Below are positions 37,921 through 62,989 of a stretch of DNA of 64,000 nucleotides, piece after piece. The DNA lies in assembly GCA_016182295.1 (NCBI GenBank), contig JACOXP010000007.1, positions 11,457-75,456 of the forward strand, in the 5' to 3' direction. The notes beneath the pieces are model-generated. The model was not told the DNA's origin. It did not search any database and was given only the letters and a program-made list of their open reading frames with translations. The translations under genes and the position numbers were made by a program. Numbering within the stretch: the first letter of the stretch is position 1; every line of letters begins with the position of its first letter. This DNA is from Candidatus Harrisonbacteria bacterium. Its GTDB lineage: Bacteria; Patescibacteriota; Minisyncoccia; UBA6257; WO2-44-18.

Positions 37921-37931
37921 GGATATTTTTG

Positions 37932-38004
37932 TCCCCTCGGAGGGAATCGAACCCCCATCAAGACCTTAGAAGAGTCCTGCTTTATCCATTAAGCTACGAG
38001 GGGC
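37932..38004 (-). tRNA. tRNA-Arg (anticodon TCT)
   Basis: Reverse complement is CCCCTCGTAGCTTAATGGATAAAGCAGGACTCTTCTAAGGTCT...GGGGGTTCGATTCCCTCCGAGGGGA. Confidence 0.75.
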
Positions 38005-38028
38005 CACGCCTACAAGCAGGCAGGCTGG

Positions 38029-38099
38029 TCGGACTGCTGGGAGTTGAACCCAGGCCACGTGCTCCCAAAGCACGTATACTACCGTTATACTACAGTCCG
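38029..38099 (-). tRNA. tRNA-Pro (anticodon TGG)
   Basis: Reverse complement is CGGACTGTAGTATAACGGTAGTATACGTGCTTTGGGAGCACG...CTGGGTTCAACTCCCAGCAGTCCGA. It has a C1:G72 pair and discriminator A73. Confidence 0.8.
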
Positions 38100-38790: not shown

Positions 38791-39462
38791 GTGATTATTA
38801 ATTCTCTTTATAAAGATGCGCAAGCATTGAGAGATGCTGGCTATTCATATAATATGATCAGCGAAGAACTAGGAATAGCTAAAAGCACCCTTAGTAATTG
38901 GTTTAAAGATAGACCATTTAAGCCCAATAGTGCGGTAATAAAAAGAATTCAGCTTGGGCCAATGAAGAGCGCGGAGAAAAAACATAATAAGAAAGTGTCA
39001 GAAATAGAATATTTTAATCAACTCGGCATTCAAGAAGTCGGGTCTTTGACTCAAAGAGATCTTTGGTTGTTGGGACTTGGTTTATATATCGGAGAAGGAA
39101 CAAAATCGCACGAAATGATCAGAATTATCAATGCCAATCCCGCTGTTATTAAATTAGCTATAAAATGGTTTAAAGAAGTTTGTGGCTTATCTAACGAAAA
39201 TATTACTATTGCAATACATTTATATCCAGATAATAACGTAAAGCAGTGTCTTAATTTCTGGCATAACATAACCGGACTACCAAGAAACAACTTCAGGAAA
39301 ACCCAAATAGATCGCAGGACTAATAAATTAAGGATTAAAAATAAGAAACTTCCCTACGGTACAGCCAACCTTAGTATTATTAGTCGAGGTAATGTTGATA
39401 AAGGCGTTCGCCTTTGTCGACGTATACATGGATGGATGAATGGAGTATTATCACAAGCATGA
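38791..39462 (+). CDS. HTH-containing putative LAGLIDADG-like (single-motif) endonuclease
   Basis: N-terminal HTH ISEELGIAKSTLSNWFK, then LWLLGLGLYIGEGTK, which resembles a LAGLIDADG dodecapeptide. Stop lies 1 nt before tRNA-Gly. Confidence 0.45.
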   Translation: MIINSLYKDAQALRDAGYSYNMISEELGIAKSTLSNWFKDRPFKPNSAVIKRIQLGPMKSAEKKHNKKVSEIEYFNQLGIQEVGSLTQRDLWLLGLGLYIGEGTKSHEMIRIINANPAVIKLAIKWFKEVCGLSNENITIAIHLYPDNNVKQCLNFWHNITGLPRNNFRKTQIDRRTNKLRIKNKKLPYGTANLSIISRGNVDKGVRLCRRIHGWMNGVLSQA

Positions 39463-39463
39463 T

Positions 39464-39534
39464 GCGGGTATAGTATAGTGGCATTATGTCAGGTTTCCAA
39501 CCTGAAGACACGGGTTCGAGTCCCGTTACCCGCT
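39464..39534 (+). tRNA. tRNA-Gly (anticodon TCC)
   Basis: GCGGGTA acceptor, anticodon loop TTTCCAA, T-arm ACGGGTTCGAGTCCCGT, discriminator U73. Confidence 0.8.
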
Positions 39535-39614
39535 CACAAGTCTAATTCGCAAGGCAGACGATCGCCAAATCTGATTTGTATGGGACGTTATTTAGAAATA
39601 AAAAACTCCCGACG

Positions 39615-41063
39615 TTATGTCGAGAGTGTTTGATCGTCTAGATCTTTTTTGTAAAATTTAATCTGTTTCTCGCCGTTGACTTCTTCCAACTTAACCACGA
39701 CCGTATCGGCCAGTTTGATCTCATCAGACTCGACCATTCGAGCGATTTTGGTTCTGATAAATTTTTCCAAGCAATCTTCAAGAGCTTGAGCGCCAAACTC
39801 GCTCTTTTTTACGGAGAGATCAACGAGGTGGTTCATCGCCTCTTGATCTACTTTTAACCCAAAGGGTAATTTCGATTTGGCCAAATCATCATTTAAGTTA
39901 CGAATTAGAAGCTTAAAAATCCTGATAAGGTGCTGGGGTTCGAGTGGTTGAAAGATGACAATTTTATTTACCCGATTCGTAAGCTCAGACGGCAATTTTT
40001 CCCTAAATTTTTCGATAATGCTGTTACGGATCACGTCATCGCGTTTTCTGGAGTCGACTTCATGCGAACTGTCGGCCTGAAAACCCATATGTTTGCTCAT
40101 TTCAGCAATTTCTTCGGCGATAACTTTGCCGATGATTATAATAAAAGAATTTTTGAAACTAGTCGTCTGTTTTTCAGAAATTTGCAGTTGGCCCGTCTCC
40201 ATAATTTCCAACAAAATGTTGAGCAGCACCGGATGCGAGTTTTCGATTTTATCAAAGACAACAATTGAAGTTAAATTCTTGGGTGGATTGCTGGGCTCGT
40301 AAACCCAACCGAAACGGCACATTTCTTCTAGTCTCTTAAAAACACCATCGAGTTCAGAAAGTTCCTTGTTGAAACTTATCAACTCATCGGCCATTTTTTT
40401 TCTTTTCCCTTCCAAAAGGGCGGCTTCCGCTTGTAAATTAGTAATCTCGTCGTCAATCTTCTGGGCTTCGTCATCGAAATTTTCTTGACGTTCTAAAACT
40501 AATTCTTTCATCGCCGTTTCTTTATTTTTAATCTCATCACTTAGAGAACGGATTTCCTCGCCAATTTCCTTGGCTTTCTGCTTAACGTTAAGCAATTCTT
40601 GGCATCTTTTGATAGTCCTGCCGATTTCCTCTTTGTGTTCCCGAGCAAGGTATTTGTGATGATGCCTGTCAAGATTCCATTGGCTCAAGGCCGGATAAGA
40701 AGCAAGTTGTTCAATTTCTTGGGCTTGGGCCTCGTCATCAATATCAGAGTCAATCTCAGAGGAATCGGAAAGATTGGAGCAGGTAATCCTGGTAAATGCT
40801 TGCGGGTCTCCGAATAGCAACTTGGCCAGCATCTCCGGCACACGAATCTTTCCAACCCCAGTTGGTCCAAGAAATAGCACGGAAAAAACAGGGCGGCTAC
40901 GATTCCTCGCTGGAGAAGAATAATTCTCAAGCGCCTCAACCAAAGCTTCAACCGCCCCATCTTGACCGATAATCTCTTCCTGTAGAAATCCAATTACCTT
41001 TTTCATCCTCTTGCTAATCTTTTTGTCATCGAGGTGGATCAACTTCCTTTCTTTGCCTTCCAT
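39615..41063 (-). CDS. ClpB/ClpA D2-like AAA+ protein with a degenerate active site and a ~170-aa coiled-coil insertion
   Basis: VLFLGPTGVGKI (Walker A with GKT changed to GKI). SIVVFDKIENSHPVLLNILLEIMETGQL (Walker B DE changed to DK). The sensor-1 TSN is lost and the sensor-2 Arg is Gln in GAQALED. A C-terminal ClpB_D2-small-like domain is present. Confidence 0.75.
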   Translation of the reverse strand: MEGKERKLIHLDDKKISKRMKKVIGFLQEEIIGQDGAVEALVEALENYSSPARNRSRPVFSVLFLGPTGVGKIRVPEMLAKLLFGDPQAFTRITCSNLSDSSEIDSDIDDEAQAQEIEQLASYPALSQWNLDRHHHKYLAREHKEEIGRTIKRCQELLNVKQKAKEIGEEIRSLSDEIKNKETAMKELVLERQENFDDEAQKIDDEITNLQAEAALLEGKRKKMADELISFNKELSELDGVFKRLEEMCRFGWVYEPSNPPKNLTSIVVFDKIENSHPVLLNILLEIMETGQLQISEKQTTSFKNSFIIIIGKVIAEEIAEMSKHMGFQADSSHEVDSRKRDDVIRNSIIEKFREKLPSELTNRVNKIVIFQPLEPQHLIRIFKLLIRNLNDDLAKSKLPFGLKVDQEAMNHLVDLSVKKSEFGAQALEDCLEKFIRTKIARMVESDEIKLADTVVVKLEEVNGEKQIKFYKKDLDDQTLST

Positions 41064-41102
41064 ATTCTTCTCCTGTTAATGTCCTACTTTTCAGAGTATA
41101 CC

Positions 41103-41143
41103 AATAAAAAAACCCCGACAAGAGTCAACTCTTGTCGGGGGGT
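41103..41143. terminator. Rho-independent terminator between 41150..43117 and 39615..41063
   Basis: ccccgacaagagt-caa-ctcttgtcgggg, followed on the minus strand by a T7 run. Confidence 0.6.
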
Positions 41144-41149
41144 ATAACA

Positions 41150-43117
41150 TTACTGCATTTCCTTGAGATAAGCATCGAAGTCTTTTAAGACTTCGGCGTT
41201 TCCGGTTTCCAAATCTATCGTTGGCAGAGCGCGAAAGCTGGCTTCGCTTTCGATAATCCGCTGATTCGCGAATCTAACTTTGAGTAAGCCAACTCCGAAA
41301 TCAACGGTTTTCAATTTATCATCTTCAAAACCGCTGCGCTGTTTGATAGTACCGACCTGAAGACAAACTCTTTGCCCTGTTTCAAATCGCCACTCGTTAA
41401 CAGCTTCCGCGGTATGAAAATTAGCGCCGAAGACCACATGGCTATCCACCTTGGCCAACATTTCCTGCGGTCGTATGGACGGCGTCTTGGTCCGCGCCAT
41501 AGAAGGGTGAAGTAACGCAATTGAAAGCCCAGAGGGAAGTATGTGCTTTTCCCCTCGGCCGAGTCGGATAATTTTCCGGCTCGCAATGCCCAATAAATCG
41601 CCGTTATTGTAACTGATCTTGCGCTTCGCAAGCACCTTGCTAATGCCCTTCACCAAATAGAGTTTGAGGTCGCTCTGGAAAATTTCCAGAGAGTCAAACC
41701 CAGCCGGAAGGGTCCATTCACAATGGTTGCCTGGGATATAAACAAAGGTCAAAAGCGCTTTCTCGATCAACTTAACCAGTTGGTCGCTGTTTGGCTTTCC
41801 CTTAGCTTCTTCTAAGACTTCTGCCAATCTGGGCTCGAAAACTTTCAACATTGCCGTGCCAACGAGATAGGCAGCGAGTTTTTCCTGCTTTGTGTAATTG
41901 AAAACGTATTTAGCGCTTCCAAGCACTTCATTTCTGAGAAGCAAATCATGCTTCAGCCCCTCAACAAAGTCGCCGACGCCGACAAAATAATTAAGCTTGT
42001 TAGCCAGGATAATTTGGGGAACAACGTCTCGGAAAAATCTCATATCGGTATGGCGGCATCCGGCATGGAGACATCCAAAAGCGCAGAAAGAATCCTCCTG
42101 TAATTTTGTTTCCAAAGCCGGATAGCGAAGTTTTTTCTGAAACCAACCCAAATCAAAATAGTATCGTTTGGAGGCCTCATCTTCGCCAAGCTTGGGCCAA
42201 GAAAAGCTGACTTCTTTCCTGCAAAGATTATCTAATTCTCTTTTGAGTTCGTTGCGATTAATGTTGATTTCGTCCCGCAGCTGGCCGAGAGTAAGCGGAC
42301 CGCGTTTTTTTAATTCTTCAACGCAGATTTTTTGAATCTCCGTTGAATAAGGCGGCGCTTGTACCAAGGCCCACTCGCCCGAAACCAAATCTTTGAAATT
42401 GATAATCGTCCAGGACGCTTCTTTGGCGTTCAGAGTAGTTGATTCTAAAATGCAAATACCAATCTGGTTTTCCACAATCCGCGTTTCGTCAACTTTGGAA
42501 AGAGCGGGCAAGGTAAAATACGGCCTTTTGATTTCAGTGGCGTCTCCCGGGTTAAAAACCGAAACGCCGAGACCGCCGACAACGTTGATGTTGCCAAGAC
42601 CTCTTGTGCCTCGCTTCAATTCATCTTTCAAAACCCGCAAAGCTGGCGTGTCATAATAATCACCCCTCATCCACACGCCTCTCTTGGGAGCATAAGCTCC
42701 AAGAATTTCACCCAATTGTTTGATTTCCAAACGGTCGCCGCCGGCTCGGTAAAGACGTATATCTCGTCGCGTTTCAACCAAACGGCGCGCCACAGCTTCG
42801 CCAATCCAACCATCATAGGCGGGACTTGTAATAATATGCAATTTAATTTCTGGAATTACCGGGATCGCTTTTTTAAGCTTGTCAACGATGTCTTGAATAA
42901 AAGTTTCTTCCACTTCCTTTCGCGCATCACCTTTTTTCCCGCGGCGATCAATTTCCAATTTACTGTAAAGTGACTTGAAATCCACCAGACCGCCTATCAA
43001 GACATTGTAGTGCGTCTTTCTCTTAATGAAATAGTTTGTGGCTAACTCCCAAAGACCCTCTCGGTATCCCGGGCCACCGTAATCCAGGCGCGACACCAGG
43101 CCGATTCTTACTGACAT
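41150..43117 (-). CDS. Large hypothetical protein with a C-terminal calcineurin-like metallophosphoesterase-type motif set (atypical)
   Basis: 655 aa with a GAAGGAGGAG Shine-Dalgarno. C-half carries AFGCLHAG, VGVGDFVEG, YIPGNHCEW and HVVFGANFH, resembling MPP motifs I, II, III and VI with substitutions. N-half is uncharacterised and possibly a degenerate second MPP-like domain. Confidence 0.55.
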   Translation of the reverse strand: MSVRIGLVSRLDYGGPGYREGLWELATNYFIKRKTHYNVLIGGLVDFKSLYSKLEIDRRGKKGDARKEVEETFIQDIVDKLKKAIPVIPEIKLHIITSPAYDGWIGEAVARRLVETRRDIRLYRAGGDRLEIKQLGEILGAYAPKRGVWMRGDYYDTPALRVLKDELKRGTRGLGNINVVGGLGVSVFNPGDATEIKRPYFTLPALSKVDETRIVENQIGICILESTTLNAKEASWTIINFKDLVSGEWALVQAPPYSTEIQKICVEELKKRGPLTLGQLRDEININRNELKRELDNLCRKEVSFSWPKLGEDEASKRYYFDLGWFQKKLRYPALETKLQEDSFCAFGCLHAGCRHTDMRFFRDVVPQIILANKLNYFVGVGDFVEGLKHDLLLRNEVLGSAKYVFNYTKQEKLAAYLVGTAMLKVFEPRLAEVLEEAKGKPNSDQLVKLIEKALLTFVYIPGNHCEWTLPAGFDSLEIFQSDLKLYLVKGISKVLAKRKISYNNGDLLGIASRKIIRLGRGEKHILPSGLSIALLHPSMARTKTPSIRPQEMLAKVDSHVVFGANFHTAEAVNEWRFETGQRVCLQVGTIKQRSGFEDDKLKTVDFGVGLLKVRFANQRIIESEASFRALPTIDLETGNAEVLKDFDAYLKEMQ

Positions 43118-43206
43118 AGAACTCCTCCTTCTTTCTTGTTTTAAACGAACAACGACTGTTTATAGTATTAAGCAAAATAAAAAAAGGGTCAACAAACGTT
43201 GACCCT

Positions 43207-43728
43207 TTATGGATGCCAAATGGAAACTTGTCGTTCGTCATTAAAATCTTTCTGGTTACCCACCGGCCACTCGAATCCAAATCGTTTCGCCGCCTTGTAA
43301 ATGGTATTAATGTTTATTTCGGGAAACTTTGACTCCAACCATTTGTGGGGATTGCTGTGATTTTTTGCTTTTTTCAACGCTTTTCTTAATCGTTCTTTTT
43401 CTTCATCCGGCCACCAACGATGATCCGTTCTTTTAAGACCCTGGACGGCGGCATGACCCACAAGACTGCCTTTATTTCTTCCAGGAAAAGATTTCAAGAG
43501 TTCCGGCCAGGAAGCGGTTGTGTATTGCTTTTTGAAATCGGCGTTTTCTTTATCAGACCAAAATACATACTCGCGTTTTCTTTTTAAATGCAAATGGTTG
43601 CGGGCGCGAAGATTAATAGCCGTCCAGCTTCTTCCGGGAAGCCGCGCTTCTATGACGTTTCGCGGTGCTTTTTCAAAAACAGCAATCAAAATAACGTCCT
43701 CTTTTTTCACCCATGGCTTTTTAATCAT
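43207..43728 (-). CDS. Hypothetical Trp-rich protein
   Basis: ORF 43207..43791 trimmed to MIKKPWVKKEDV. Terminator at 43172..43205. Confidence 0.45.
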   Translation of the reverse strand: MIKKPWVKKEDVILIAVFEKAPRNVIEARLPGRSWTAINLRARNHLHLKRKREYVFWSDKENADFKKQYTTASWPELLKSFPGRNKGSLVGHAAVQGLKRTDHRWWPDEEKERLRKALKKAKNHSNPHKWLESKFPEININTIYKAAKRFGFEWPVGNQKDFNDERQVSIWHP

Positions 43729-43798
43729 TATTTCTCTCCCAAAGTTCTGCGGAAATCTTATCAAAGAAAAAATCTTGGCGCAAGCCCTCATTTGTCTA

Positions 43799-53990: not shown

Positions 53991-55763
53991 TTAATTTTGC
54001 AAATTACTGATATTGTTTTTAACTTTTCCGCGAACGCGGAAAAAGAAATAAGTAAGAAACAGAAGTGACAATAGAATAATCGCCGAAAGGAAAATTGATG
54101 CCTGCGCGTAACTGACTCCCATCACGCCGAGTAAAGAGCTTGTCAAAACGGCGTTGAATGTTTTTGGATCGGACCATAAATAGCTGTTGCCTTGAGCAAC
54201 GCCGGCTTTCACCTGCCACTTGCCCGGAGGCAATCCCAGATCTTTCGCGATTGACCATTCCCCCGCTTTATCGCTTTTAACCTCAACGCTTAGCGTTTCT
54301 TCGCCGTTTTCGTTAATGAAAACCAAACTGACCGCGCTATCGGCTTCGGCGGTGCCCGACAAGTAAAAAATTTCTTCTTCCGGATAATAAACGGGCGGGG
54401 CTATTGAGATAGACGGCGGAGATGCCGCGTTGACAATGCCGGGCAATAAAAACCCTGAAAACAAAGCAATGGCCAGAAACACAGCCGTTGGCGGTTTGCG
54501 GAAAGAGTTAATTAATTTCTTCCAATCATCCCGCAGGGCGTAATAAATACGACCGCGATGCAAACGCATCAAACCCAATGAAATCGCGCCGATTAATAAA
54601 GCCAAGGATCCCAAAAAGGCCGCGACCCATTTCCAGGGAACAAGAAATCTTCCCAAATCCACTCCATCCGGGCCCACAAAACGATAAATTGGTCTTACTA
54701 TGCTTAAAGTCACGAATTCTTCTCGAAAATTACCGACTTTGTCCACTGCTTTTATAATAATATGGTATCGGCCAACGTCAAGATTGCTTAAAGCGTAAGG
54801 CGAGAATGCCTCAAAAAATAGCGATCCCTCATCCTGATCATCCTGCGTCAGATTGACGATCTTTAATTCAAAATGGTCCAACCCGGATAATTTATCAAAC
54901 GCCGCGAATTGCAGAATAATATCCTTTTGAGAAGTTCTCGCGTCGGGAACAACTTCAATGTCGAAAGATTCCGGAGGACTGACGTCTATTTTTGCGGCGA
55001 AGTGCGAAACGCCGCTCCACACGCCTTGCGCTTTTTGCCTTAAGTGCAGATACCAAATGCCGCTTTCCAAATCGGAAAATGAAACCGAATTTGCTTTCGT
55101 ATCACTAACCGCGTCGGGGAAACCCGATGAATCCTGATCAAAGGAATAACTAAAATCCTCAACCAGCGGATTTCTGTCCCAGCTTAAAATTATCGTCGAG
55201 TCGCGATTCCATTCGTTCGGATCCGGATGAGTTGATGAGAAGATTTGGGGACCCAGCGGAGCAGCCACGTTAAAATTGAAAAAGGCGGGCGCGGTCTGCC
55301 CTAAAGCATCAGTGGATGGTGATTGGCTGGTAAATACCCGCGTATTTTGCCCGAACCGGATTTCTCCGCTTCCGGGAGCAATTATCCTGAAGGTGAAAGT
55401 CAGGACGACTCCTTTCGAAACAGTCGTTCCCGGACTGGGCATATTGCCGGAGAAATAGATTCTGCCTTCACGATTGGAAAATGACGGTGGGACAATCCAG
55501 TCCTGAATTAAGGACTGGCCGATGGATGGTCCGGAAAGCTGAATTTTATCTTGGGGGAAAAAGAGTTCCACTTCCAACCCGCTAACTACCTGTTCTTTGG
55601 TGTCCAATAAAATTGAGAGGTCAAAAGTACTGCCGACAATAAACGACCCGCTGGGTGGGCTTAATAATAAAGTTGGGGAAGCCGCTCGCGCGGGATTAAT
55701 CGAGAGAAATAGAAATAGAACTGCAAATAAGAGAGAGAGAGAGAGAGGAAAAGTTTTTTTCAT
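53991..55763 (-). CDS. Cohesin-domain surface protein, paralog 1 (with an extra C-terminal module after the first TM)
   Basis: Signal peptide. LLLSPPSGSFIVGSTFDLSILLDTKEQVVSGLEVELFFPQDKIQL...FSNREGRIYFSG is a cohesin-like N-domain. Middle domain carries THPDPNEW...WYLHLRQ. Two further hydrophobic segments flank a second signal-peptide-like stretch (LPGIVNA-ASPP) and an extra ~100-aa domain. Confidence 0.65.
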   Translation of the reverse strand: MKKTFPLSLSLLFAVLFLFLSINPARAASPTLLLSPPSGSFIVGSTFDLSILLDTKEQVVSGLEVELFFPQDKIQLSGPSIGQSLIQDWIVPPSFSNREGRIYFSGNMPSPGTTVSKGVVLTFTFRIIAPGSGEIRFGQNTRVFTSQSPSTDALGQTAPAFFNFNVAAPLGPQIFSSTHPDPNEWNRDSTIILSWDRNPLVEDFSYSFDQDSSGFPDAVSDTKANSVSFSDLESGIWYLHLRQKAQGVWSGVSHFAAKIDVSPPESFDIEVVPDARTSQKDIILQFAAFDKLSGLDHFELKIVNLTQDDQDEGSLFFEAFSPYALSNLDVGRYHIIIKAVDKVGNFREEFVTLSIVRPIYRFVGPDGVDLGRFLVPWKWVAAFLGSLALLIGAISLGLMRLHRGRIYYALRDDWKKLINSFRKPPTAVFLAIALFSGFLLPGIVNAASPPSISIAPPVYYPEEEIFYLSGTAEADSAVSLVFINENGEETLSVEVKSDKAGEWSIAKDLGLPPGKWQVKAGVAQGNSYLWSDPKTFNAVLTSSLLGVMGVSYAQASIFLSAIILLSLLFLTYFFFRVRGKVKNNISNLQN

Positions 55764-55771
55764 TGTTGTGT

Positions 55772-57016
55772 TCAGCCATGATTTTTTTTCTTTTTGCCGT
55801 GAAAAGGCCTGGCTGATTTAATAATATCATTCTTAATATGATGTTTTATATGAGCGCGGTGATTTTTGTAAATCCACAAAACCATTACAAGCAAAATTAA
55901 AGCCAAACCGCCCAAAACCAGCAAAATCATTAGCTCTAAGCCGTCAGCGCCAACCAATTCATAAGCGGGATCAACGATAGTAATGGTTACTAACTGGTCC
56001 GCTCGATTCCCCGCCCGGTCAAAAGCCCTGACAATAACGTGGTATCGGCCAATGTCTAAATTCGAAAGAAAATAGGGGGAATCAACGTTAAAAAACAAAG
56101 GATCTTCAATGCTTCCCAAATTTAACGGCACTAGTTTAAACTCGTAATGATCTAGGCCGGATAAAGAATCCGCCGCGGAAAATTCTACGATTAAATTACG
56201 TTCAGCGGTACGTTTGTCCGGCGAAACCGCTACTTTAAAATCGGAAGGCGGATTTTTGTCTATTCGAATCGTGAAGTGGGAAACGCCGCCCCACACTTCT
56301 TTCACTTTTTGACGAAGATGAAAATACCAAACGCCGCTTTCCAGATCGGAAAAAGAAGCGAAAGTTTCGCTGGTTTCGCTGATAGAGTCCGGAAAACCGG
56401 AAGGGTCGTGATCCAGAGAATAACTGAACCCATCGGCTAAGGAATCTTTAACCCAAGTAAAATTCACCGTCGAATCGCGATACCAGTTTTCCAAATTGGG
56501 ATGGGTGGGGGAAACTATTTCAGGGCCGATTGACGGCGTGGGGTTTAGCGTCAGAAAAGCCGGAACGGTCTGGCCAAGAATATCGGCTGGCAAGCCATCG
56601 CCGGCGAATACCCGCGATTTTTTGCCAAATTCAATTTGAGCGCTGCCGGGCGCGATCACCCGAAAATTCAAGGTTAAAACAACGCCGTTGGAAGTCCGAA
56701 TTCCTGGGTTTTGCGTATCGCCGGACAAATAAATCCTGCCTTCGCGGTTGGAAAAAGACGGCTGGGTCGTCCAGGATTGAATTAAAGACCGACCAACCGA
56801 CGGGTTGGCAAGTTGCAGTTTATCGGGGGGGAAAAAGAGTTCCACTTCCAATCCGCTAACCACCCGTCCTTTGGTGTCCAATAAAATTGAAAGATCGAAA
56901 GTACTGCCGACAATAAACGACCCGCTGGTCGGGCTAAGCAATAAAGCCGGGGACGCCGCCCACGTCGTATTGAGAGAAAAAAAAAAGAAAAATCCTAGAA
57001 ATAAAGCATGAGCCAT
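55772..57016 (-). CDS. Cohesin-domain surface protein, paralog 2
   Basis: Same architecture: signal peptide, cohesin-like domain (LLLSPTSGSFIVGSTFDLSILLDTKGRVVSGLEVELFFPPDKLQL), conserved middle domain, C-terminal TM and basic tail. Confidence 0.65.
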   Translation of the reverse strand: MAHALFLGFFFFFSLNTTWAASPALLLSPTSGSFIVGSTFDLSILLDTKGRVVSGLEVELFFPPDKLQLANPSVGRSLIQSWTTQPSFSNREGRIYLSGDTQNPGIRTSNGVVLTLNFRVIAPGSAQIEFGKKSRVFAGDGLPADILGQTVPAFLTLNPTPSIGPEIVSPTHPNLENWYRDSTVNFTWVKDSLADGFSYSLDHDPSGFPDSISETSETFASFSDLESGVWYFHLRQKVKEVWGGVSHFTIRIDKNPPSDFKVAVSPDKRTAERNLIVEFSAADSLSGLDHYEFKLVPLNLGSIEDPLFFNVDSPYFLSNLDIGRYHVIVRAFDRAGNRADQLVTITIVDPAYELVGADGLELMILLVLGGLALILLVMVLWIYKNHRAHIKHHIKNDIIKSARPFHGKKKKNHG

Positions 57017-57022
57017 AATTCA

Positions 57023-58294
57023 TCATGACTTGTCTTCCGGTTTTTCAAAAGCGCGTTTAACTTTCCAAATATCATCGTAAATGGAGCGCTTAACATGAGT
57101 GCCGTGCTTTCCCAAAATCCGGAAAATAATTATTAACAAAATCAACGCCGGCAAACCGACGACCAGCAAGACCGCCAACCAAGGTATGAAAAATTTTCCT
57201 AAATCTACGCCGTCCGGTCCGATAAATTTATAAATAGGGGCGACTATGTTAACAGTGACTAACTTGTCTCGATAATTCCCCGCTTTGTCGAAAGCCCTGA
57301 TAATAATATGGTATCTTCCAGTATCCAGATTGGAAAGAAGATAAGGGGAGGTGATTTCAAAAAATAACGGGGTGTCAACGCTTCCTCGGCTTAGCGCAAC
57401 TAGTTTAAGCTCATAATGGTCAAGACCGGATAGCGTGTCCGTGGTAAAAAACTGCAGGAATAAATTTCGCTCGGCGGTGCGCTCGTCTGGCAAAACGGTA
57501 ATGTTGAAATCCGAAGGCGGGCCACTGTCTATTCTGAATGGAAAGTGCGAGACGCCGCCCCATACGGCTCTGACCCTCTGGCGAAGATGGAAATACCACA
57601 AACCGTCGTCAAGACTGCTGAAAGTGTTTGACGTCCTAATACCCTCGGATTCTATATCCGGAACTCCGGATGGATTCTGGTCTATGGAATAACTGAAACC
57701 GTCCGCGCCGCTGATATTTTGCCAGATAAAAGTCGGGTTGGGATCGCGATACCATTTTTCCGGATCTGGATGGCTGGGCGAAGCGATCTCTGGGCCGGCG
57801 GCGGGCGACACTGAAATGCTGTAAAAGGCCGGGGAAGCGTTTGCCAGGATATTAGTACCGAGGCCGTCGTTGGCTAAAATCCGCGTCCGGTTCCCAAAAG
57901 AAATCGTCGCCTCTCCGGGAGCAATCGCCCTAAAAGTTAAGGTTAAAACTACACCGTCGGAGGTATTGATTCCCGGCGACGGAATACCACCGACAAAACG
58001 CGCCCGTCCTTCGCTGTTGGAAAAGGTGGGGGCGGACGGCCAAACTTGAATTAATGAACGACCAATAGACGGGTTGGTAATTTGCAGTTTATCAGCCGGG
58101 AATATCAACTCTACTTCAACTAAATTGGCTGATAGCCCCTTCGTATCCAAAACAACCGAAACATTAAACGTCCCGCCTGTTAGAAAAGAACCCGAAGACG
58201 GACTAAGAGCCAAAGTCGCCGGACCGGCCGCTGGCGCCGGAATCGGCAAAATCAACACTAATAAAAATAAAGTTAAGAATAGTTTTTTAATCAT
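57023..58294 (-). CDS. Cohesin-domain surface protein, paralog 3
   Basis: LALSPSSGSFLTGGTFNVSVVLDTKGLSANLVEVELIFPADKLQI...FSNSEGRARFVGG, then a middle domain, then TM and basic tail. Confidence 0.65.
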   Translation of the reverse strand: MIKKLFLTLFLLVLILPIPAPAAGPATLALSPSSGSFLTGGTFNVSVVLDTKGLSANLVEVELIFPADKLQITNPSIGRSLIQVWPSAPTFSNSEGRARFVGGIPSPGINTSDGVVLTLTFRAIAPGEATISFGNRTRILANDGLGTNILANASPAFYSISVSPAAGPEIASPSHPDPEKWYRDPNPTFIWQNISGADGFSYSIDQNPSGVPDIESEGIRTSNTFSSLDDGLWYFHLRQRVRAVWGGVSHFPFRIDSGPPSDFNITVLPDERTAERNLFLQFFTTDTLSGLDHYELKLVALSRGSVDTPLFFEITSPYLLSNLDTGRYHIIIRAFDKAGNYRDKLVTVNIVAPIYKFIGPDGVDLGKFFIPWLAVLLVVGLPALILLIIIFRILGKHGTHVKRSIYDDIWKVKRAFEKPEDKS

Positions 58295-59070
58295 CCTCCA
58301 AAAATTCCAATAATAAATTTAACGATGAATTTTATGATGCCAAAAATAAAATTTAAAATACCCGTTCCGCCGCTAGTTGCTTCTTCGCCGGTTGTCGCGG
58401 AAACTGAAGGAGTTTTTTCAACTGGCGAGCCGGCTACCAGGCCACTGCCGCCAATTAGGGAAGCTTGTCCAAAACCTACGATTTCATCGCTCTCAACCGC
58501 GCTGGTCTCCGAAAGATCATTAATTACGTCAACAATATCCGGCGCCCATTGAAAAAACAAAATACTTAAATCGGCTAAATCAATAACTAGGTCCTTGTTA
58601 AAATCGGCCGGATTTTCTTTCGGCGGCAATTCTGCCAAATAAAGAAAGACGCTCAAATCAATCAAATTTATATAACCGTCATTGTTTAAATCGTAATCGC
58701 TCGGAACGACAAACCCGGGGATTTCTCTTTCGATAAATTCCCTAATATAATTTCTGATTAAACTTCCCCCGCCGGGATTGGCGGCGGTAATTTCTTCAAC
58801 CGCTTCTTCAACCGACTCTACGACCGCGGCTGGCAAAACCAGGATACCGGATCCGAGCCTAAAACTATCCGATGTCAAATCGCCACTGACAACCGGCTGG
58901 CCTAAATTTCCCTCTATAACAAAACCGCTGGAAGTTACCCGATGACCGGATGAAAGCAACTCCTGCCGGTCAATTTTAAAATTGGTAGAGGTAATTATCT
59001 GAGCGGAAGCAAAACCGCCGCTAATCAAAAAGATGGCAATAATTAAAGAAAAAACCGCTCTTGACATCAC
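58291..59070 (-). CDS. Secreted protein with a dockerin-type (type I-like) duplicated Ca-binding repeat and a C-terminal hydrophobic anchor
   Basis: Signal peptide. The two repeats are DYDLNNDGYINLIDLSVFL and DFNKDLVIDLADLSILF (D-x-N-x-D-G-x-I-N-x-x-D pattern). Ser/Thr/Gly linker. C-terminal GILNFIFGIIKFIVKFIIGIFGG. Confidence 0.6.
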   Translation of the reverse strand: MMSRAVFSLIIAIFLISGGFASAQIITSTNFKIDRQELLSSGHRVTSSGFVIEGNLGQPVVSGDLTSDSFRLGSGILVLPAAVVESVEEAVEEITAANPGGGSLIRNYIREFIEREIPGFVVPSDYDLNNDGYINLIDLSVFLYLAELPPKENPADFNKDLVIDLADLSILFFQWAPDIVDVINDLSETSAVESDEIVGFGQASLIGGSGLVAGSPVEKTPSVSATTGEEATSGGTGILNFIFGIIKFIVKFIIGIFGG

Positions 59071-59096
59071 GATTATATTATATCAGATAAACCGCG

Positions 59097-59669
59097 CTAT
59101 TCTTCGAACGTCCAAGTGTGCATTATCCCCGCTAAAAGCTCGTCTATCTGTGGATAACCGGTTATTTCATAAAGATAACCATTGTGAACCAGCCAAACTT
59201 CTCGCGTGCGGCCGATAGTCGGATCGTCGCTCCAGAAAAGCAACGCTCTTTGGTCCCTGTTGGGCCCTATTAAGATCTCCAGCGAATCATCAATAACCGC
59301 TGACGGCAAATCCCGCAGAATTCTTTCTTCAGTCAATAAATCGTCCAGTCGCTGAAATTTGGGAATTTCGTCCGCGTCTCCATAAAAAGGCGCGATAAAA
59401 ACTTGAAATCCCGACTGATCCCCTCCGGAAAAAACAATGGTTTCGGCGCCGTCTTGTTCGTCAAAATTTTCGACAGACCAGCCGCGGGGATATTCCAAAG
59501 AAAATCCGTATTTTCTATTTACGTATTTTTGAAAATCATCGCCCAGAATCAATTGTTTTCCAAAAAGGGCGGTTTGATTCCAAGAATCAACTGGGAACCA
59601 TAACAGAAATGCCACAACCGCAATAATCATCAAAAATCCAATAATTATTATTTTCTTGTTATGCAACAT
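59097..59669 (-). CDS. Hypothetical N-terminally anchored membrane protein
   Basis: IIIIGFLMIIAVVAFLLWF TM, then a 160-aa extracytoplasmic domain. Confidence 0.5.
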   Translation of the reverse strand: MLHNKKIIIIGFLMIIAVVAFLLWFPVDSWNQTALFGKQLILGDDFQKYVNRKYGFSLEYPRGWSVENFDEQDGAETIVFSGGDQSGFQVFIAPFYGDADEIPKFQRLDDLLTEERILRDLPSAVIDDSLEILIGPNRDQRALLFWSDDPTIGRTREVWLVHNGYLYEITGYPQIDELLAGIMHTWTFEE

Positions 59670-59689
59670 CGGAAATTATTCTAACATGT

Positions 59690-62600
59690 CTAACGCAATC
59701 TGACATTTCTTAACCTGACGTGGCCTCGCAGGCGCAGGATTTCCGGTTTCTCTATGGATATTTCCGGATAAGTCGTGTAACCGCCTCCGCCTTCCTGCGC
59801 GAAAGAACCGCCGCCGGATTGAACGGCTTGTAAACAAAAGGTTTTTCCGCCCTTCGCCACGGTATCCAGCGAAGTCGTGGAAACCGACAAAGCGAAATCA
59901 AAAAGCATGCTGGCGCCGGCGTCAACGGTTCCCTGGGAGCTGGTAAAATTATTGGATTCGTTATAGGTCTGATTGACTACCGCGTGGCTGGTGCTGGTAG
60001 CCGCGTATCGCGGATCCTGATAATTGGCCGTCAAGGCCGCCCCATCGGAAGGGGTGAAGTTATCCGCCCAAGTCATAGCGGTCGTGCCGCCCACATCGCT
60101 GAAAGAAGCCGAAGAACAGCCGCCTCCCGGTTTTTCGCCAACCTGAAGACGGCTGGTGGTGGAAGTAAGATCGTTATCGCCGCCAACATCAAAGAGTAAT
60201 CTTAAACGAATCGGGGTCCCCGATTCCGGAGCGATAATCGGCGTGTTGTAACCGCCGGCGCCGCCAACGTCGGTTGAATCGTCATTAGCAAACCAGCGGT
60301 AAGCAATTTGAGTTAAATTAGTCGCTGTCGTTGGGGCCTCGACCGCTTCAGTGGTAAACGTGCTACACCCCGAATCGGTGTAGGCATTAGTGTCATCCGG
60401 ATCCCTCGCTGATGCTTTCCACCAGTATTGCGTGCTGTTGGATAACGCGTCATCCGAATTTAGGGTATAACTTCCCTGCGTGCCGGAAGTGAAACATTGG
60501 GCGGGCTCGTTGGTGCAAACGGCGTTCGTTCCCGACCAGGTATTTTCGTAAGTGTAAAGCGCTCCGCCATTGACCCCGGCTATCAGATTAGTGCCGTCCG
60601 AATCCGTGGCAACACCCCACCAGCTCAAGTTCGTATCTCCGGCCGGTCGGCGTTCGTACCAATTTTCTCCGGAATCCCACGAAGTCCAAAGCCGGGTAGT
60701 TTCCCCGGCGATTAAAAAAGATCCGTCGCTGTCGGCGTCGACTCCCTGCCAGGATTTACTAAGCAAGCCGTTTTTACCAGTAGATTGGGCATACGACCAA
60801 GTGGAGCCCGTACTGGAAGACATCCAAAGCGCGCCGCCATTGATCGAGCCGACCATAAAAGTGCCGTCGTCATCAAGAGCGGCGCCCCAAAAATTGCCAG
60901 ACAATTCACTGACCCAATTCTGACCGGAATCTATCGAAGACCAAAGACCAACGCCTTCCGCTCCAAGAAGGACAGAACCGTCGGAGTCAGCCGCTGAATG
61001 TCGCCAGTCATTAGGCGAACCGACGCCCGCGGCCGCGCCCCAATTAGCTCCGGAGTCGGTTGAAAACCAAAGCTCGCCGGTGGTGGCGGCATCAAACACT
61101 CCGGCAATCAGCACGGAACCATCGGCGTCAGAACCGGCGCCTCGCCAATAACGGGTATTGTTCCCATCCGGCTGACGTTCATCCCAATTAGCTCCGCCAT
61201 CACTGGAGGTGTAAAGACGGTCCGCGGTACTGGCGCCAGCGATCAGATTGGAACCATCGCTGTCGGAGTCAATGGCTCGCCATTCTTTATTTAAAGCTCC
61301 GGCCGGCTGACGTTCGTCCCAGGTGGCGCCATAATCATCGGAAGTGTAAAGTCGGCCGGCATTTTGCCCCGCGATTAGATTGGAACCGTCAGAATCGGAG
61401 CCGACGCCGAACCAGGAATTAGTTCCGGACAGACGCAACTCCCAAGCATCGGCTTCATCATGCGTCTGAAGAACGGTGGTGCAACTACTTTCCGAATAGA
61501 TAGTAATTTTATAATTGATATTGCTGGAATTCGGATCGGTCGCGGTTACAAGAAAAGTCGGAGTGACGGAAACGCCAGTAGCGGCATCCGCTGGTGAATC
61601 TTGGGTAGGGGCGTTCGGCGGCGAAATCGTGCCGCTTTCATGAGTGAGAGTGTTGGCAGCCGACATAAAAATCATATCCCATTGAGAGCCGGCGTCGTCT
61701 ACTTTGGCGTTCGGCCAGCTGTTGCCGGTGCCGGAATTGATCGTCGCGCCTGAATCCCAATCCGTGCTTGCGACCCAATCAGTAGCGGTTGAACCAGGCG
61801 CTTCGATAAATTGCCGGACTATATTTCCCGAAGAATTTTTCGTAAAAAGCGCGTAATAATCGGGAGTTGATCCGGCGTAGAAAGTCAGCGTCGGCTGGGC
61901 GTTAACGTTGCCTTCGGTAGTGCTGTCGCTGGATCTTTTTGTAGAAGCGGAAGTGCCGCCGTCTTTGTCTATAAACCAAGTATTCAAACAATAGGCGCTG
62001 GCGCCTGAACAGAAAGTAGAGCCGTTAGAAAACCAAGTAACCAGAACGCGGCTGTTGGTGGAATCGGCCAGAGAATTGACGTAAAGATAGCTGGTCGCGG
62101 AAACGGTTTCCCCGTCTTTGGAAGTTACGCTTTGCCAGGTCCAGGTCGGCGGAGTGTCGCCACAGCTGTTAACGCAATTTGCCACGACGTATTTCAACGG
62201 ATCATCGACTTCTGAGAAAAAAAGATACAAACGTTTGGCGGCCGTGCCGGCGCCAGGCATTTGCTCAACGGAGGCTATAAAATTCTTGCTTTTTGCTTGG
62301 GAATCATAAATTGTGTCTATAGTTCCATCGCCGCTTGTGGCTGAAACGCCGCCCCAGTTGGAGCTCGCGGCGCCAGTGCATGTGCCAATGCAACGGATGT
62401 AGTAAACACCGGAAGCGGAGGTTGGTCCGGCGGTGGTTTTTGTGAAAACAACTCCGGGCTTGTTGTTGTGGGTCAGCACTATGCCCGGCCGGTAATTTTC
62501 ATTGTTGGAGGCGCCGGCGGCCAAAGTATTATCACCGGCGAAAGTTATGTCGGAAATATCATTTCCGGAATATACTATCGTCGCTTCCGCGTAGACAATT

Positions 62601-62989
62601 GACTGCCTGTTGGAAACGGTCGCCTGATAAGCAAGAAGGAGTTTGTTGTTGGTTGTGTCATGAACGGCCTGCACATTGCTGACGGCGGTGCCGATAGTTC
62701 CGCTGTCGGTCGTCCAGCTGGAACAGCCGGAATTGCAATAGGCAACCTGAATGACGCTGCTGGTATTGATAAAGACGGCCAGCCGGTTGTCGTTTGAATC
62801 GCGAAACAATTTTCGGCCGTTGGAATACTGGGTGGAATTGGCCAAAGCGGCCGTTGACACCGTCGTCGCCGCTTTGGCTTGCTTAATTTCCGGAGGGAAA
62901 TTTAAAACCCGCGGAAAAGGCGAAAATGTCCATCCCGCGATGATAAAAAAGACGATAAAAAATCTGATTATTTTCCTAGTTTTTGCCAT
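59690..62989 (-). CDS. Giant (1099 aa) secreted/anchored protein with a BNR/Asp-box beta-propeller
   Basis: N-terminal hydrophobic anchor. At least six S-x-D-x-G-x-[TN]-W repeats: LYTSDDYGATWDE, LYTSSDGGANWDE, WFSTDSGANWG, WSSIDSGQNWV, WMSSSTGSTWS, WTSWDSGENWYE. Ser/Thr/Gly-rich throughout. Confidence 0.75.
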   Translation of the reverse strand: MAKTRKIIRFFIVFFIIAGWTFSPFPRVLNFPPEIKQAKAATTVSTAALANSTQYSNGRKLFRDSNDNRLAVFINTSSVIQVAYCNSGCSSWTTDSGTIGTAVSNVQAVHDTTNNKLLLAYQATVSNRQSIVYAEATIVYSGNDISDITFAGDNTLAAGASNNENYRPGIVLTHNNKPGVVFTKTTAGPTSASGVYYIRCIGTCTGAASSNWGGVSATSGDGTIDTIYDSQAKSKNFIASVEQMPGAGTAAKRLYLFFSEVDDPLKYVVANCVNSCGDTPPTWTWQSVTSKDGETVSATSYLYVNSLADSTNSRVLVTWFSNGSTFCSGASAYCLNTWFIDKDGGTSASTKRSSDSTTEGNVNAQPTLTFYAGSTPDYYALFTKNSSGNIVRQFIEAPGSTATDWVASTDWDSGATINSGTGNSWPNAKVDDAGSQWDMIFMSAANTLTHESGTISPPNAPTQDSPADAATGVSVTPTFLVTATDPNSSNINYKITIYSESSCTTVLQTHDEADAWELRLSGTNSWFGVGSDSDGSNLIAGQNAGRLYTSDDYGATWDERQPAGALNKEWRAIDSDSDGSNLIAGASTADRLYTSSDGGANWDERQPDGNNTRYWRGAGSDADGSVLIAGVFDAATTGELWFSTDSGANWGAAAGVGSPNDWRHSAADSDGSVLLGAEGVGLWSSIDSGQNWVSELSGNFWGAALDDDGTFMVGSINGGALWMSSSTGSTWSYAQSTGKNGLLSKSWQGVDADSDGSFLIAGETTRLWTSWDSGENWYERRPAGDTNLSWWGVATDSDGTNLIAGVNGGALYTYENTWSGTNAVCTNEPAQCFTSGTQGSYTLNSDDALSNSTQYWWKASARDPDDTNAYTDSGCSTFTTEAVEAPTTATNLTQIAYRWFANDDSTDVGGAGGYNTPIIAPESGTPIRLRLLFDVGGDNDLTSTTSRLQVGEKPGGGCSSASFSDVGGTTAMTWADNFTPSDGAALTANYQDPRYAATSTSHAVVNQTYNESNNFTSSQGTVDAGASMLFDFALSVSTTSLDTVAKGGKTFCLQAVQSGGGSFAQEGGGGYTTYPEISIEKPEILRLRGHVRLRNVRLR

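Follow-up and report, generated by a model that had tools for sequence, protein, structure and literature searches.

A catalytically degenerate Hsp100 D2-type AAA+ protein encoded beside an unusual metallophosphoesterase-like gene in Candidatus Harrisonbacteria is probably a maintained pseudo-ATPase

The open reading frame (ORF) described here is located at 39615..41063 (-) within a stretch of 64,000 nucleotides, referred to below as the window, from Candidatus Harrisonbacteria, a tiny groundwater bacterium. It starts with ATG and encodes a 482-aa protein that consists of a single AAA+ module of the ClpC/ClpB second-domain (D2) type and is catalytically degenerate. An identical 482-aa protein (P0001, designated 'AAA family ATPase' at NCBI in a Candidatus Harrisonbacteria metagenome-assembled genome) was found on three contigs from independent sources, indicating that the ORF is not an assembly artefact. 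On the same strand, two genes are aligned upstream, encoding a 655-aa metallophosphoesterase (MPE)-like protein (41150..43117, -) and a 194-aa protein with Trp-spaced repeats (43207..43791, -). The evidence presented below indicates that the AAA+ protein is probably a maintained pseudo-ATPase and not a gene product that is simply decaying.

The protein was detected by the Pfam model AAA_2 (E 1.8e-20, 74 bits against a cut-off of 27) in two separate stretches, and by ClpB_D2-small (PF10431; E 3.7e-7, 30.5 bits) at residues 374-457, the small alpha-helical subdomain (39693..39944, -). By phmmer against the PDB, the best matches were ClpC D2 (8e-29) and the second nucleotide-binding domain (NBD2) of ClpB (1e-27), each again in two stretches, residues 23-98 and 265-461. 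Together with the corresponding predicted fold, these matches identify the protein as an Hsp100/Clp D2-type AAA+ module, in agreement with an earlier note, made from the DNA sequence alone, which had proposed a ClpA/ClpB-type second domain with its C-terminal small domain kept. The special likeness to ClpB put forward in that note stands in part. The profile of the family to which the protein belongs scored 316 bits against ClpB NBD2 but was marginally closer to ClpC D2 (324 bits), followed by ClpA (232), Skd3 (about 195) and ClpX (73), and the protein carries a GF loop, which ClpB is not known to have. It is not a ClpB disaggregase, since the equivalog model TIGR03346 gave 122 bits against a cut-off of 1232 and only positions 668-847 of 853 were matched; likewise, the known equivalogs all scored far below their cut-offs for the family protein. 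HslU was absent among the 60 best PDB matches of the profile, so HslU is not its closest relative. Unlike ClpC and ClpA, with which it shares the large and small subdomain fold, the site of the [LIVM]-G-F loop and the Arg finger, the protein is a single module without N-domain, D1 or M-domain, and its ClpP partner is putative.

The motifs were read residue by residue in an alignment with ClpC and in a 113-sequence family alignment. The four substitutions listed in the earlier note proved correct, and column-by-column inspection of these alignments showed that the motif register is not shifted. The Walker A P-loop GPTGVGKI (40845..40868, -; residues 66-73) keeps its Gly and Lys residues (G66, G71 and K72), while the Mg-ligand Thr is replaced by Ile (T73I). 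In Walker B, IVVFDKIE (40242..40265, -; residues 267-274), the Asp (D271) is kept and the catalytic Glu is replaced by Lys (E272K). The sensor-1 position reads IGK for T-S-N (40125..40133, -; residues 311-313; N313K), and sensor-2, inside the small subdomain, reads GAQ for GAR (39786-39794, -; residues 424-426; R426Q). The patterns expected of a functional ATPase (Walker A GxxxxGK[ST], Walker B hhhhDE, sensor-1 Asn and sensor-2 Arg) are thus all missing. So is the aromatic-hydrophobic pore-1 motif G-[YF]-[VI]-G of a threading motor: at the site of G-Y-V-G, residues 99-122 (40698..40769, -) form an acidic stretch, SDSSEIDSDIDDEAQAQEIEQLAS, with nine D/E and no K/R. The statement that every catalytic signature had been substituted therefore holds for the cis-acting ones, but not for the trans-acting Arg finger, nor for the P-loop Gly and Lys, D271 and the M-G-F loop. 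The Arg finger R364 (in LTNRVNK; 39972..39974, -) aligns with the Arg of the ClpC/ClpB motif F-[IL]-N-R-[IL]-D, or F-L-N-R-[IV]-D, and is invariant in a 41-sequence alignment (A3). The M-G-F loop (40080..40088, -; residues 326-328) aligns with ClpC VGF ('kyVGFn') and is followed by a flexible segment; G327 is invariant in all alignments made (A2, A3 and A4), and F328 is invariant in A4 and conserved to at least 90% in A2 and A3. As read from these alignments, the protein is devoid of every cis-acting hydrolysis residue (Walker A Thr, Walker B Glu, sensor-1 Asn and sensor-2 Arg) and of the pore loop, which makes ATP hydrolysis by the canonical mechanism impossible and leaves no pore loop for gripping a polypeptide. 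With both the cis catalytic signatures and the pore loop lost, it cannot be a conventional disaggregase or unfoldase, and the core idea of the earlier note, a pseudo-ATPase and no disaggregase, is borne out.

The distribution of the losses is not random. The four substituted positions are 92-100% conserved among 105 intact relatives, which argues against a chance pattern. Of 53 columns conserved in at least 80% of these relatives, the protein keeps 34 and shows 3 conservative and 16 non-conservative changes. All 16 non-conservative changes are located in catalytic or pore motifs, namely the Walker A Thr, the pore segment (8 positions), the Walker B Glu and K275, the sensor-1 segment (4 positions) and the sensor-2 Arg, and none affects the 37 other conserved positions. 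Loss of catalytic residues combined with retention of the fold and of conserved non-catalytic positions is the pattern of a pseudoenzyme.

A coiled-coil insertion resembling an I-domain separates the strand of the pore loop from that of Walker B. The antiparallel hairpin occupies residues 144-251 (40311..40634, -), about 108 aa rather than the approximately 170 aa first estimated, and 44% of its residues are charged. At the base of the insertion lies a family-specific anchor motif, YPALSQWNLDRHHHKYLAREH (40635..40697, -; residues 123-143), which in relatives reads P-x-L-S-Q-W-N-[IL]-D-[KR]-x-H, and the coiled coil is followed by a conserved return linker, GWVYEPSNPPKNL (40272..40310, -; residues 252-264), with the motif G-W-x-Y-x3-N/H-P-P-x2-L, common to the protein studied here, its L002 homologue, P0223, P0244, P0248, P0250 and P0236. 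In the relatives, the order of elements is ...GSPPGYVGF..., anchor motif, coiled coil, G-W-x-Y-x3-N-P-P-x2-L and Walker B; the insertion begins about 15-25 residues beyond G-Y-[VI]-G and is completed ahead of Walker B. The distance from the pore-loop position to the Walker B Asp is accordingly about 154 residues in the Harrisonbacteria protein versus 21 in ClpC. Because the relatives carry both elements, the coiled coil is not a replacement of the pore loop, as had been supposed, but a family-wide insertion located past it; the alignments place the overwriting of the pore-loop segment by the acidic stretch as a separate change.

The AlphaFold2 (AF2) model showed a complete and confident fold (predicted local distance difference test, pLDDT, 88.1), in which the large subdomain of D2 type is accompanied by the small subdomain and by a beta-hairpin at the C-terminus. 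Helices 128-142, 144-194, 197-235 and 238-251 make up the insertion, the last three with pLDDT above 90; residues 144-235 form the two-helix part of the antiparallel hairpin. Values below 50 were obtained at residues 102-122, the former pore loop, and at residues 329-334, just after M-G-F, both predicted to be disordered. The ClpB coiled-coil M-domain sits in NBD1. The coiled coil examined here lies inside a D2-type large subdomain, and this difference in insertion site led us to reject equivalence to the M-domain; instead, the model places it at the position of the HslU I-domain. HslU docks HslV through its C-terminal tail; the protein described here has a GF loop as its putative docking element. 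The likeness to HslU, a single-ring protein of the AAA_2 type whose auxiliary domain, mostly helical, is likewise inserted past the pore-1 loop and ahead of Walker B, is one of topology only: the protein is much nearer in sequence to ClpC/ClpB, its insertion is a simple two-helix hairpin, and it is catalytically dead. The I-domain of HslU comprises residues 110-243 (PMC4703411), and its pore Tyr is residue 91 (PMC10743992).

Sequence comparison places the protein in a large, unnamed family of Patescibacteria made up of single-module D2-type AAA+ proteins of 400-520 aa. The family was uncovered from neighbour-anchored loci and by an exhaustive phmmer scan of 1.84 billion representatives. A word-indexed homology search was flooded by thousands of ClpC/ClpB matches and yielded only one true family member, P0002, a full-length relative with 28% identity and all motifs intact; a second such search, seeded with the alignment of the dead clade, missed even its own members. 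Motifs were counted in 97 family representatives whose insertion measures 45 aa or more (range 46-191 aa, median 109). The Walker A Lys and the Walker B Asp were present in all 97, the Arg finger in 96, the GF loop in 94, the sensor-1 Asn in 93, the Walker A Thr/Ser in 92, the Walker B Glu and the sensor-2 Arg in 90 each, and the aromatic pore residue in 88. Motifs are thus intact in about 90% of the representatives, and from this high retention the normal state of the family is an apparently competent ATPase. One intact member, at locus L016 (3608-5758), has a 300-aa N-terminal extension, for which a provisional 'Lon-N' label was dropped since no Pfam match is found there; a homologous fragment starting at the same position is present at L022:8214-8969.

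Eight members, including the Harrisonbacteria protein, are without the pore loop, and most of them are also without catalytic residues. The pore loop is substituted in the protein of the window and deleted in the other seven. Where the window protein has KI at the end of Walker A, DK in Walker B, IGK at sensor-1 and GAQ at sensor-2, the corresponding residues are KL, DK, TTN and GAR in P0244; KL, DQ, SLT and GAW in P0248; KM, DR, SLG and GAW in P0250; KM, DH, SLT and GAW in P0325; KT, DH, TCN and GIR in P0305; KT, DH, TSN and GIR in the L028 protein; and KT, DE, TSN and GAR in P0236, in which the pore loop is the only loss. Sensor-2 reads GAG in three otherwise intact members (L002, P0225 and P0230). 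The Mg-ligand Thr, where lost, is always replaced by a hydrophobic residue (I, L or M), and of the seven members that have lost the catalytic Glu, six carry K, R or H in its place and P0248 carries Q. The GF loop is kept in all eight, and the Arg finger in all but the L028 protein, which has His there. Invariant among the dead members are G33, Q34, G66, G71, K72, D271, G327, F328, I382 and G424. As to whether the substitutions are conserved among orthologs, the answer is mixed: most relatives, including the syntenic L002 protein, have intact motifs, yet other syntenic homologues (P0248, P0250, P0325 and P0244) are dead with differing residues.

The neighbouring 655-aa protein was modelled by AF2 with high confidence (pLDDT 90.4) as a metallophosphoesterase fold with a central winged helix, in agreement with the earlier description of an atypical metallophosphoesterase-like protein. 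Its motif I is C-x-H instead of the usual D-x-H, and its motif V is N-F-H instead of G-H-x-H. No Pfam or NCBIfam model detects it, and about 100 full-length homologues (clusters) are distributed across Patescibacteria. A family AAA+ gene is located directly downstream of the MPE-like gene in the window and in loci L002, L010, L012, L016 and L028; in L018, one ORF of 148 aa intervenes. The genes for P0244 (L029), P0248 (L030) and P0236 (L034) are also just downstream of an MPE-family member. The L030 contig carries P0122, which of all homologues comes closest to the MPE-like neighbour in the window (56% identity), and P0248 is therefore the positional counterpart of the Harrisonbacteria AAA+ protein, also dead. 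The genes for P0250 (L031) and P0002 (L001) are downstream of a 923-aa and an 893-aa protein, respectively, which are homologous to each other (33% identity); their link to the 655-aa family is weak (BLAST E 0.013, hhalign E 0.066), with nothing more in common than the motifs GC[TL]H and GNHC. The gene for P0325 (L035) follows a 715-aa ORF that has no Pfam match and fell short of E 1e-20 with the MPE profile, so that its place in the MPE family is at most putative.

The 194-aa protein, SANT/Myb-like by eye and without a Pfam or NCBIfam family, is probably the product of the third gene of the module. Genes for its homologues precede the MPE-like gene in L002, L029 and L035, and in L031 (7038-9809) the 923-aa MPE-like protein carries the Trp-repeat protein as an N-terminal fusion, providing a Rosetta-stone link.

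Terminator-like hairpins are located after each of the three genes, at 43183-43208 (-), 41095-41149 (-) and 39605-39627 (-). The one upstream of the AAA+ gene (41095..41149, -) is a GC-rich hairpin with a U-run (RNA fold -26.5 kcal/mol, z -6.6), resembling an intrinsic terminator, and is followed by an extended -10-like box, TGGTATACT. Intergenic regions were compared in L001, L002, L010, L012, L016, L028-L031 and L035, and a hairpin with a T-run between the upstream gene (MPE-family or 893/923-aa) and the AAA+ gene was found in 10 of 11 related loci. Alignment of five such loci with the window showed conservation of the T-run and of a leader, ...TTTTTATTTTTAGTTAGTGTGATAGTAGACCGTTGATAA..., before dead and intact AAA+ genes; the L030 leader contains an 8-nt inverted repeat, TTTAGTTA/TAACTAAA. 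This leader could be a promoter or operator, possibly a site for the winged helix of the neighbouring protein. Because a terminator-like hairpin and a promoter-like box separate the two genes, the link between the AAA+ protein and the MPE-like protein rests on gene order and not on co-transcription.

The genomic setting of the module is that of the core genome, with tRNAs and bipA in the window, rpsB, tsf and rpmG in L002 and L004, and obg in L030 and L031. In the window, the module is flanked by tRNA-Arg, tRNA-Pro and tRNA-Gly, and amid these tRNAs is a 223-aa ORF with a weak helix-turn-helix match and a weak homing-endonuclease match (PADLOC HEase, E 4e-4), ending 2 nt before tRNA-Gly; the tRNAs and this ORF occupy 37931-38099 (-), 38791-39462 (+) and 39464-39535 (+). 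Farther away, at 53991-62989 (-), large ORFs of 590, 414, 423 and 1099 aa have no Pfam match at E 1e-5 or better. In the AAA+ protein itself, PADLOC models (PDC-M37B or DolB, 1e-8 to 1e-11) matched only the Walker A region (residues 4-106), and no PADLOC match was obtained for the neighbours of its gene; given these partial matches and the core-genome context, a role in anti-phage defence was rejected. The P0250 copy differs from that of the window in adjoining a mobile or defence region. SAVED and SMODS genes, resembling a cyclic-oligonucleotide-based anti-phage signalling system (CBASS), and a HicA toxin gene lie about 8 kb before P0250, at L031:1-2084, and downstream of P0250 are an AAA_13 ATPase and a serine recombinase.

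In some loci, the slot after the MPE-like gene is occupied by other genes and AAA+ is absent. A divergent ClpP-like gene (PF00574, 51.6 bits) directly follows the MPE-like gene at L003:8089-8880 (Kaiserbacteria), and in L006, L007, L008 and L023 the following ORF resembles protein-isoaspartate methyltransferase by eye. Both of these alternative downstream genes represent protein quality-control functions.

With respect to the origin of the dead copies, they cluster in a neighbour-joining (NJ) tree of the AAA+ proteins with bootstrap values of 13-22%, whereas in a tree of the MPE-like neighbours they fall apart into the window, L030, L029 with L034, and L028, with the intact L002 inside the clade of the window. 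Monophyly of the dead copies is therefore not claimed. Because the MPE-like gene tree scatters them, several independent inactivations are more likely than a single one, though not proven, as these are simple NJ trees in which long-branch effects are possible.

Based on these observations, we favour, with moderate confidence, the reading that the protein is a maintained pseudo-ATPase acting as a nucleotide-binding but non-hydrolysing and non-threading ring or scaffold for the products of the neighbouring genes, a role whose biochemical steps we infer from conserved residues. Nucleotide binding and a non-cycling ring are proposed because conservation among the dead members extends to the P-loop, the adenine-pocket residues (G33-Q34, I382 and G424), the Walker B Asp and the Arg finger. 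The dead protein would still bind nucleotide, possibly without Mg2+, since the replacement of the Mg-ligand Thr by hydrophobic residues and of the Glu usually by K, R, H or Q hints at Mg-independent binding. The bound nucleotide and the Arg finger would hold a stable ring, performing neither ATP hydrolysis nor substrate threading, with its six coiled-coil arms and its six GF loops displayed on opposite faces. Such a ring may serve as a static platform or adaptor for the MPE-winged-helix and Trp-repeat proteins, possibly also for a ClpP-type partner, rather than as an unfoldase. Engineered Walker-B trap proteins are known as ATP-locked, stable hexamers. These variants of ClpB, ClpC and ClpX (E to Q or A), including the ClpC DWB structure (PDB 7abr) found among the structure matches of the Harrisonbacteria protein, are similar to it in combining a replaced Glu with an unchanged P-loop Lys and Arg finger. 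The protein of the window differs in being natural; having additionally lost the pore loop, the Mg-ligand Thr and both sensors, it could not hold a substrate in the channel. For the same reason, loss of catalytic residues and pore loop, threading as by ClpB/Hsp104 is excluded, even though it shares AAA_2 and ClpB_D2-small with NBD2 of these proteins.

Several observations weigh against this reading. Nucleotide binding, ring formation and contacts with the neighbouring proteins are all predictions from sequence. The association of the genes is partial: several AAA+ loci adjoin the MPE-like gene, but among about 23 distinct MPE-anchored loci this holds for only about 7, so the co-occurrence that the earlier note proposed to check is found only in part. 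The AAA+ gene may be transcribed on its own. Neither the 64-kb window nor the AAA-containing loci examined showed a ClpP gene. The closest relatives of the protein show at most 35% identity anywhere, as judged from the exhaustive phmmer scan and a metagenome scan; the latter, made with the protein alone, gave no close relative and only ClpC-like D2 modules of 23-37% identity. Without a close relative and with synonymous divergence (dS) saturated in all comparisons, selection in its own lineage is not directly measurable. Finally, between L002 and L030 the MPE gene shows 67% identity and the AAA+ gene 32%, and pairs involving dead copies diverge faster; such accelerated divergence fits either change or relaxed constraint after loss of the motor.

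The alternative that survives best, although we consider it unlikely, is that the protein is a non-catalytic subunit of a mixed ring and donates its Arg finger in trans to an active paralogue, such as an intact family member, ClpC or ClpX. LAP1 and LULL1 act in this way for Torsin, and inactive subunits do so in the rings of Pex1/Pex6 or FtsHi. The near-invariance of the Arg finger and the conservation of interface and fold residues are as expected for such a subunit, and TorsinA, LULL1 and inactive FtsHi are among the structural neighbours of the protein. LAP1 has an AAA+-like fold devoid of nucleotide motifs, and Torsin is activated by its conserved Arg (PMC4358337); like LULL1, the D1 of Pex1/6 and chloroplast FtsHi, it resembles the present protein in having an AAA+ fold with hydrolysis motifs lost and the Arg finger kept. 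Unlike LAP1, however, which has no nucleotide-binding motif at all, the dead members keep the P-loop GxxGxGK and the pocket residues invariant, and these would be unneeded in a pure Arg-finger donor. The protein also differs from this group in being bacterial, Hsp100-derived and without a known active partner: the 64-kb window contains no other gene of the AAA_2 type, none lies beside the dead copies of L028-L030, none is found among the called genes of L031, L034 and L035, and the orthologous positions in L002, L010 and L012 hold a single intact copy.

More doubtful is a role as an ATP-independent cap or regulator of ClpP, in which six GF loops would dock on ClpP and either open its gate to unstructured substrates, as acyldepsipeptides (ADEP) do, or block the access of active unfoldases, while the coiled coils recruit cargo. 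IGF-type loops dock into hydrophobic sites (H-sites) of ClpP, and occupancy of these sites by IGF loops or ADEP activates ClpP (PMC9035409). The alignment of M-G-F with ClpC VGF, the retention of the GF loop in the family, the flexible, low-pLDDT segment after it and the ClpP-like gene in the AAA+ slot of the Kaiserbacteria locus are all consistent with this idea, and docking is so far a prediction from the alignment and the model. On the other hand, a GF tripeptide is short, its role in the family is putative, and ClpP is missing not only from the window and the AAA-containing loci examined but also from the Pfam lists of the later loci.

Very unlikely, in our judgement, is the possibility that the gene was recently inactivated and is heading for loss, that is, a unitary pseudogene with an open frame, as the earlier note had allowed for in the case that orthologs carry intact motifs. 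Most family members, the syntenic L002 protein included, are indeed intact, the protein is a singleton, and in dead-copy pairs the AAA+ gene has diverged faster than its neighbour. But the 482 codons are uninterrupted, both termini align end to end with those of relatives, the predicted fold is confident and complete, and the losses are confined to the catalytic and pore motifs. Moreover, the identity to the L002 protein (34%) is within the range among intact members (32-37%). Several other lineages keep dead or pore-less homologues as full-length ORFs (P0244, P0248, P0250, P0325, P0305/L028 and P0236), and in all pairs tested the proportion of nonsynonymous changes (pN) was lower than that of synonymous changes (pS), for instance 0.37 versus 0.74 for P0248/P0250; since dS is saturated between lineages, only pN < pS can be stated and no ratio is trustworthy. 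All three contigs with P0250 have the same sequence for this gene and thus provide no polymorphism for a dN/dS estimate. It is barely credible that the protein is still an active ATPase through non-canonical residues, using for instance another acidic residue as the catalytic base: the P-loop Lys, Walker B Asp and Arg finger remain and E274 (in FDKIE) lies two residues past the lost Glu, but E274 is 94% conserved also in intact members and hence no compensatory novelty, and four independent elements (Mg-ligand Thr, catalytic Glu and both sensors) were lost together with the pore loop.

The maintained pseudo-ATPase can be extended, with rather little confidence, into a joint reading of the three genes, in which the Trp-repeat protein, the Cys-containing MPE-winged-helix protein and the coiled-coil AAA+ protein would form a core machine specific to Patescibacteria, the motor having been lost independently in at least three lineages. 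Candidate roles for such a machine would be that of a platform, locked by nucleotide, that carries an Mre11-like nuclease or phosphoesterase on DNA, or that of a gate-keeper controlling ClpP independently of ATP. The resemblance to Rad50-Mre11/SbcCD is analogy only, for there is no sequence or fold relationship: Rad50 is an ATPase of the ABC/SMC type, and its coiled coil is several-fold longer and bears a zinc hook. The coiled coil of the window protein gave a marginal NCBIfam match to an SMC-related protein (E 0.004).

Inactive AAA+ subunits as such are well known already. As far as our searches show, however, a pore-less and motor-dead derivative of Hsp100-D2, recurrent in a Patescibacteria family beside an unusual metallophosphoesterase, has no prior description, and nothing relevant to a coiled-coil D2-type AAA+ family was found in the literature on the candidate phyla radiation (CPR)/Patescibacteria.

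Hsp100/Clp rings are textbook examples of ATP-driven threading motors, and a natural descendant without the motor implies a job that is independent of it. Intact, partly eroded and fully dead members within the same gene neighbourhood provide a comparative series for what an AAA+ ring does without ATP turnover. The analysis also draws attention to an uncharacterised but widely conserved gene pair or triad in Patescibacteria, whose genomes are minimal, so that most of the genes kept are presumed to be important; within the triad, the metallophosphoesterase stands out by the unusual Cys in its metal-binding motif I. If the three-gene machine is real, it would represent a natural experiment in which the essential role of the ring is motor-independent, and, should it serve as a nuclease or phosphoesterase platform, a Rad50-like architecture would have been rebuilt from the AAA+ fold.

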